Below are positions 57,943 to 58,290 of a DNA stretch of 64,000 bases, in pieces. Each line of letters begins with the position of its first letter. Position 1 is the first letter of the stretch. The DNA lies in assembly GCF_024700885.2 (NCBI RefSeq), contig NZ_CP117016.1. One strand, given 5' to 3'. Position numbers and translations under genes: made by a program. The notes under the pieces are model-generated. The model was not told where the DNA came from, made no database searches, and saw only the letters and a list, made by a program, of their open reading frames with translations. This DNA is from Escherichia coli. Lineage in GTDB: Bacteria; Pseudomonadota; Gammaproteobacteria; Enterobacterales; Enterobacteriaceae.

Positions 57943-58290
57943 ATGATTAAAATCAATAACGTACGTGGTGCTAACGTTAGCGTCAACGGAGAAGACTTCA
58001 CTGGTCATCATATTACGATTAACAATGGAAAAGTGATCGTTGATGGTGTCGAAAAAAATAGCAATCTTGACGGACAGATTAACGTAACAATTAATGGAAG
58101 CGTGGAAGGCGTTGAGATTGAAAATGGATCAGTGACTGTAAGCGGTGATGCACATTATGTGAAAACTATGTCTGGTGATGTCCATTGTTCCAATGTATTG
58201 GGAAATGTAAACACCATGTCTGGAGATGTAATCTGCGAAACTGTTGGTGGAAACGCCAGCACAATGTCTGGAAATATTATCAAGAAATAA
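57943..58290 (+). CDS. Repeat protein of unknown function (115 aa), predicted beta-helix/beta-roll
   Basis: AT-rich ORF, opposite strand; four internal periodic repeats (VTVSGDAHYVKT, MSGDVHCSNVLGNVNT, MSGDVICETVGGNAST, MSGNII). Confidence 0.5.
   Translation: MIKINNVRGANVSVNGEDFTGHHITINNGKVIVDGVEKNSNLDGQINVTINGSVEGVEIENGSVTVSGDAHYVKTMSGDVHCSNVLGNVNTMSGDVICETVGGNASTMSGNIIKK

Follow-up and report, generated by a model that had tools for sequence, protein, structure and literature searches.

The 115-amino-acid open reading frame (ORF) at positions 57943 to 58290 of the window, by which we mean the whole 64,000-nucleotide stretch of Escherichia coli DNA that was analysed, lies on a moron: a self-contained cassette (candidate promoter, Shine-Dalgarno site, ORF and hairpin terminator) of foreign base composition, placed in a swap slot of Uetakevirus-type phages. 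The encoded protein is predicted to fold as a right-handed beta-solenoid and falls into PHROG 3163, a large, uncharacterised family whose carriers in several bacterial phyla are phages, both temperate and virulent, as well as conjugative plasmids and a putative integrative conjugative element. With moderate confidence, we read this protein as a soluble cytoplasmic solenoid that acts by binding, a moron-borne accessory factor in host modulation or in conflict between mobile elements.

Taken alone, the gene is just another hypothetical moron gene, and ordinary in form. The wider interest lies in the family, a compact and strongly conserved solenoid that recurs in phages, plasmids and at least one putative integrative element from several phyla, with no Pfam model to represent it. 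Its members are often mislabelled as bactofilins, tail proteins or structural proteins, and correcting these labels together with defining the family would improve annotation. The E. coli copy offers a clean natural test case, being monocistronic and located in a swap slot for which isogenic-like phages with other cargo, or with none, are available. Should its members prove to act on a defence system or on some conserved process of the host, the family would represent a new class of small effectors; otherwise, the gene is a routine accessory one.

The cassette and its swap slot

The region contains the following features.
55242–56921, minus strand: portal protein gene.
56936–57142, minus strand: 68-aa gene like epsilon15 gp3, just upstream of the portal gene.
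57570–57646, plus strand: tRNA-Arg (anticodon TCT), a conserved neighbour (ARAGORN; Rfam tRNA model, 71.7 bits).
57690–57725 and 57811–57826: two terminator-like hairpins 3' of tRNA-Arg (terminator scan).
57835–58304, no strand assigned: variable cargo cassette, i.e. the swap slot of Uetakevirus-type phages (BLAST boundaries against phiV10; alternative slot contents).
57872–57899, plus strand: candidate sigma-70 promoter, ACGACA, a 16-nt spacer and TGT-CATAGT with an extended -10 (permissive scan; suggested by sequence only).
57929–57933, plus strand: Shine-Dalgarno site GAGGA, with the ATG 9 nt further on (direct reading of the sequence).
57943–58290, plus strand: ORF of the PHROG 3163 beta-solenoid protein, 115 aa, 11.9 kDa, pI 5.1 (ORF, PHROG match, AlphaFold2 model, dN/dS, physico-chemistry).
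58165–58275, plus strand: three in-register TMSG[D/N] coils, residues 75–79, 91–95 and 107–111, with a 16-aa (48-nt) period.
58303–58332, no strand assigned: hairpin resembling a terminator, AAAGCCCGCC...GCGCGCGCTTTGTTTT, in the gap where the ORF and terL converge (sub-threshold Trp_leader stem; phiV10 equivalent).
58376–59851, minus strand: terminase large subunit gene terL, the right flank of the slot (ORF; annotation in TL-2011b, phiV10 and MLI114).

The ORF was found with the translation that an earlier note on this DNA had described, and that note was also right about its AT-richness, its opposite strand and its place next to the tRNA. The solenoid gene is antisense to both terL and the portal gene, the tRNA-Arg(TCT) gene lies approximately 300 nt upstream, and the GC content across the gene is 0.36–0.39 compared with 0.52–0.59 in terL and the portal gene. 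The stretch that was checked against E. coli MLI114 (57800–58340) matched it at 100%, and the corresponding MLI114 region is a phiV10/epsilon15-like (Uetakevirus) prophage adjoining guaA. For ZX5, a related phage, the attachment site lies at the 3' end of guaA (PMC9782041). In the annotation of MLI114, the prophage extends rightward past the end of the window, to guaA; positions 1–33000 of the window hold many large plus-strand ORFs and seem to lie outside the prophage, in the chromosome or in other sequence. The gene is also present in phage TL-2011b, at 99% amino acid identity and annotated as a hypothetical protein.

The earlier note had placed the ORF in a 1.4-kb insertion between terminase and portal genes that are normally adjacent in related phages, and on these two points it has to be corrected. 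In comparison with phiV10, identity is 98% through position 57834 and homology begins again at 58305, so that only the intervening stretch of about 470 bp (57835–58304) differs; in the two flanks of the slot, identity to phiV10 is 98% and 90%. The rest of the 1,454-nt interval between terL and the portal gene consists of the conserved 68-aa gp3-like gene, the tRNA and a conserved leader, each of which phiV10 has as well. Because these elements are conserved in the phage group, the supposed insertion was wrong in extent, and the tRNA-Arg block separates the terminase and portal genes in all Uetakevirus relatives examined.

The content of the slot varies among the sister phages. In phiV10 and ZX5 it holds an Sf6 gp66-like gene of 112–123 aa, in PAS61 an unrelated 140-aa gene, and in phiv142-3 it is empty. 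With other genes or none in its place in these phages, the solenoid gene is a moron that occupies a swap slot, and the description of it as phage cargo is borne out. It is also rare, being found in just 10 of 5426 complete E. coli genomes. Like the phage morons known from fixed swap slots, the gene opposes the flanking late genes and varies among collinear phages; the morons at the P2 positions and neaT (PMC3573123) are likewise single genes of deviant GC content. In the literature searched, we found no description of the tRNA-Arg–terL slot of Uetakevirus or of its alternative cargos.

The cargo genes of phiV10 and PAS61 begin about 15–20 nt past the upstream terminator, which leaves no space for a promoter of their own, unlike in the solenoid cassette. 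The candidate promoter at 57872–57899 matched 9 of 12 consensus positions and has an extended -10 in a permissive scan, and a similar extended -10, CATGnCATAAT, stands upstream of the gene in viral contig L015; a stricter scan flagged no plus-strand promoter for the solenoid gene. A promoter at this site is thus only suggested. At the other end, the hairpin at ~58303–58332 between the solenoid ORF and the convergent terL is followed by TTTGTTTT, and phiV10 has an annotated terminator at the equivalent site.

The Rfam scan of 56800–58500 found the tRNA alone. A Trp_leader attenuator at 58239–58332 (plus strand) was considered and rejected, since the match scored 25.3 bits and the gathering score is 41. 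What stands behind the match is merely a hairpin terminator, common to the convergent solenoid ORF and terL.

The copy of the gene in L015 occupies the same slot and is 65% identical. Between the two copies dN/dS is approximately 0.10, which marks the solenoid ORF as a real gene under purifying selection. For more distant copies the synonymous sites are saturated, and pN is only 0.18–0.34.

The repeat, the predicted fold and the family

The earlier note had counted four periodic repeats in the protein. The periodicity is real and exact, and it joins three copies rather than four: TMSGD begins at residue 75 and again at residue 91, and TMSGN at residue 107, with a period of exactly 16 residues, while VSGD at residues 66–69 is out of register, the next SGD following 10 residues on. 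The corresponding direct DNA repeats of 48 nt, at 58153, 58201 and 58249, are merely 64–76% identical to one another, which indicates that the repeat is old and has been kept at the protein level. In 138 family members the 16-aa motif spacing was predominant, occurring 268 times. The TMSG[D/N] repeat is real and far beyond chance.

In an alignment of 62 members (A1), the invariant columns were D34, G35, G52, G78, G87, M92, S93, G94, S109 and G110, and T75, S77, D79, V80, C82, V85, T91, D95, V96, G103, T107 and M108 were near-invariant. The last three coils thereby form a near-invariant T-M-S-G-D ... C ladder; from coil to coil its Met, Ser, Gly and Asp hardly vary, and Cys is conserved to about 90%. 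The small beta-roll or beta-helix that had been guessed from the repeats agrees well with the AlphaFold2 model, computed with the 62-sequence alignment (mean pLDDT 86.8, pTM 0.74), in which the protein is predicted to be an all-beta right-handed solenoid. The predicted solenoid spans residues 2–114 of 115. Its C-terminal half has two strands per 16-residue coil, and residues 1–45, including the invariant D34 and G35, form a simple N-terminal cap. We found neither a signal peptide nor a transmembrane (TM) segment in the 115-aa protein (maximum 19-residue Kyte-Doolittle hydropathy 0.62); from the lack of a hydrophobic segment and the pI of 5.1, the protein is expected to be soluble and cytoplasmic.

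Far from being the orphan that it was first taken for, the protein matched the PHROG 3163 HMM at E = 9.3e-37 (126.6 bits), with residues 2–115 aligned to profile positions 6–120 of 121. PHROG 3163 is its own family, with the same length and the same repeat, catalogued without an assigned function. Homologues numbered 1101 at E ≤ 1e-3 in a set of 5.8 billion proteins, and 1426 cluster representatives in a library clustered at 50%; most of the homologues among those listed were of 105–140 aa. The earlier note could place the protein in no well-characterised family, and in this respect its statement stands. The single 115-aa sequence had no significant match in Pfam or NCBIfam and none at E ≤ 1 among the PADLOC anti-phage defence models, and a sequence search of the PDB with the single sequence and two family profiles returned only chance-level matches (ribosomal protein L6 and similar). 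The literature searched contained no paper on the PHROG 3163 family.

By tblastn, the family was present in 181 phage records, including large virulent Vibrio phages (KVP40 and nt-1 types) and Bacillus, Klebsiella, Erwinia and Aeromonas phages, and in 181 plasmid records, of which 110 were conjugative. Foldseek against BFVD extended the matches to jumbo phages and, more weakly, to giant viruses. IncI2 plasmids carry a family gene under the name 'phage tail protein' (e.g. L097, NZ_LN623683, 1021–1437), a label that is almost certainly wrong.

Outside the E. coli slot, the family gene usually stands among small early genes, co-oriented with them in an operon; its neighbours include genes for RecT, an exonuclease, RdgC, a DNA methylase and RusA. 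In Shewanella, Gilvimarinus and one further prophage it shortly precedes xis/int; it was also found directly 3' of an S24 (CI-like) repressor gene in Acinetobacter baumannii prophages, and next to topoisomerase III in a Fusobacterium element resembling a conjugative element. In a podophage-like element of Enterobacter hormaechei, the homologue is co-oriented between genes for a 280-aa scaffold-like protein and the major capsid protein. At Acinetobacter-type loci (L004–L006, L037, L039, L041, L042 and L046), the gene is translationally coupled, by an ATGA overlap or a 0-nt gap, to a gene for a 63–76-aa protein with one predicted TM helix, and rare relatives (P0139, P0189) are fused to TM segments. 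The coupling to a single-TM protein hints that some family members may work at the membrane.

No partner gene conserved more widely than within groups of close phage relatives emerged from all-vs-all clustering of the neighbours at 80 viral loci. The two largest neighbour clusters were discounted, as they consisted of antisense shadow ORFs within the family gene itself. Overall, the behaviour of the family gene is that of an accessory which mobile elements can dispense with.

Candidate functions of the solenoid

With 115 aa, the solenoid appears too small and too featureless for an enzyme. It lacks catalytic motifs, and its surface is rigid and repetitive, which makes action by binding most plausible. 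It could serve as a rigid scaffold, a decoy, an inhibitor or a docking platform, with the conserved ladder face of the last three coils engaging the target; the latter might be a widely conserved cellular component or a component of a rival element. The protein would then be an accessory factor in host modulation or inter-element conflict rather than a part of the virion. Its nearest functional analogue would be the Toastrack (DUF4097) solenoid. The C-terminal domain of MinC and other short beta-helical protein-binding modules (CAP/TBCC) match it in fold class only: MinC is three-sided, dimerises through its beta-helix and has no sequence relationship to the solenoid family.

The alternative that fares best, unlikely as we consider it, is that the protein is a true minimal Toastrack-domain protein plugged into the envelope-stress (Psp/Lia-type) circuitry of the host, for instance to modulate PspA/PspBC in lysogeny or lysis. 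Toastrack domains (DUF4097/PF13349, DUF2154, DUF2807; LiaG, YvlB, the C-terminal domain of LiaX) have been proposed to form a sub-membrane docking platform (PMC11237479), and the predicted two-sheet solenoid with its repeated SGD[IV] turns is consistent with their description there, as is the occasional TM anchoring seen in the relatives that are fused to TM segments or coupled to a TM protein. The likeness extends to the cytoplasmic location and to recurrent weak HMM matches. DUF4097 was matched by 22 of the 138 members at E values from 3e-3 to 0.1 (best E 2.8e-3), LiaG and LiaX gave faint matches (E 0.2 and 0.037, respectively), and one JGI source names a family member 'DUF4097 ... YvlB'.

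Against this reading, none of the 138 members reached E ≤ 1e-3 for a Toastrack model, LiaG and LiaX remained far below their cut-offs and were the only, noise-level, NCBIfam matches of ten divergent or fused relatives, and solved Toastrack chains were not retrieved by the family profiles. The characteristic N-terminal region of Toastrack, seven-stranded with intertwined strands (PMC11237479), would probably not fit into 115 aa. The solenoid protein is about half the size of Toastrack proteins, stands alone and is borne by mobile elements, and psp, lia, PspC and two-component genes were absent from the more than 90 neighbourhoods examined. Moreover, the E. coli gene is monocistronic, and its product has neither a TM segment nor a partner. 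We therefore treat Toastrack as the closest analogue of the solenoid protein and not as its family.

A bolder form of the binding hypothesis, about as unlikely, would make PHROG 3163 a previously unrecognised minimal solenoid effector whose ladder binds one universal cellular target. Such an effector would represent a new class of host-takeover, anti-defence or exclusion proteins, perhaps a reduced Toastrack able to subvert stress signalling beneath the membrane, and would be shared by phages (temperate, virulent and jumbo), conjugative plasmids, integrative elements and possibly giant viruses.

It is improbable that the protein is a bactofilin-type, self-polymerising cytoskeletal protein whose filaments would reorganise the host cell. 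This idea comes from the databases, in which many of the AFDB50 members are named 'polymer-forming cytoskeletal protein' or 'CcmA' (others carry the name 'tail-associated lysozyme' in UniProt/NCBI). The predicted fold, with a right-handed beta-helical core of about six windings, does share a feature with bactofilins, and its size, ~115 aa and roughly 6–7 coils, is close to that of the bactofilin core domain; a phmmer search with the single sequence also returned the bactofilin TtBac (6ria), at E = 0.28. The windings of bactofilins (BacA, CcmA, TtBac; PF04519/DUF583), however, are three-sided, with approximately 18 residues and three strands, whereas the C-terminal coils here are modelled with 16 residues and two strands. 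The 115-aa protein has no disordered tails and no membrane-targeting N-terminus, the solenoid taking up residues 2–114.

PF04519 matched none of the 138 members (sets of 62 and 76), even at E ≤ 0.1. In the precomputed Pfam column it was assigned to 0 of the 120 best homologues, compared with 120 of 120 true bactofilins (relatives of BacA and TtBac), which had been retrieved by way of a CcmA-like sequence. Aligned by hhalign with a profile of 19 verified PF04519 proteins (A4), the family profile A1 gave a probability of 1.0% over 14 aligned columns, and the bactofilin PDB chains 6ria and 2n3d were not retrieved by the family profiles A1 and A2. Foldseek against AFDB50 yielded 42 matches, essentially all of them family members. 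As a weak in-silico proxy for self-assembly, a GS-linked tandem dimer was modelled by AlphaFold2 with a paired alignment and gave no confident assembly (pTM 0.44, pLDDT 66.6). As no member examined matches PF04519, the bactofilin names look like a propagated mis-annotation, and on the strength of these comparisons the family is best regarded as distinct from bactofilins and the database names as over-annotation.

About equally improbable is that the ladder of Met, Cys, Asp and Ser residues itself binds a metal ion or a regular lattice, by analogy with Ca2+-dependent antifreeze proteins and RTX beta-rolls. The conservation of the ladder across successive coils is what this reading has in its favour, and an invariant Met, rather than just any hydrophobic residue, would be unusual for pure core packing. 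Yet RTX and other metal-binding families gave no match, and the ladder residues could be mere structural turn and core positions.

A structural or assembly role in the virion, as a decoration, tail or needle component, is very improbable for the protein studied here. Tail spikes are commonly beta-helical, some relatives are recorded as 'phage tail protein', 'tail-associated lysozyme' or 'structural protein', and the position of the Enterobacter hormaechei homologue, co-oriented between scaffold-like and capsid genes, makes a virion role possible in some lineages. In the window, however, the solenoid gene runs against the structural operon. Phages can do without it, since phiV10, ZX5, PAS61 and phiv142-3, all named phages with complete deposited genomes, have no solenoid gene, and its rarity among the E. 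coli genomes points the same way. Most homologues, moreover, are located in modules for early functions or recombination, or else on plasmids, which have no virion.

That the ORF arose by chance or is a decaying pseudogene without function, as the sole label 'hypothetical protein' in PGAP and all phage records might suggest, is effectively refuted by the pattern of conservation, with a dN/dS of 0.10 and a full-length family conserved across phyla at a constant ~115 aa, and stands against the confident AlphaFold2 fold and the presence of a Shine-Dalgarno site and a terminator.

The tRNA-Arg neighbourhood

Several small ORFs have been annotated around the tRNA-Arg gene as hypothetical proteins. 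On the opposite strand, phiV10 p04 and TL-2011b AEW24578 (83 aa) lie over the tRNA itself, and a 57-aa ORF (WP_257843731) is annotated in the tRNA/terminator region of MLI114. The small minus-strand ORFs of the window at 57576–57827 and 57718–57891 look like false gene predictions in the stretch of the tRNA and the terminator.

Upstream of tRNA-Arg lies a conserved non-coding leader of approximately 270 nt (57290–57569, plus strand). It had no match in Rfam, and its folding z-scores are modest, -1.5 on the plus strand and -2.5 on the minus strand. The leader is also common to Salmonella SPN1S-type and Klebsiella phages, and about 155 nt of it (57329–57482) are 81% identical to an unannotated segment of P1/P7 located between trnI (tRNA-Ile) and ban. 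It may represent a tRNA-associated processed leader or a non-coding RNA common to unrelated phages.
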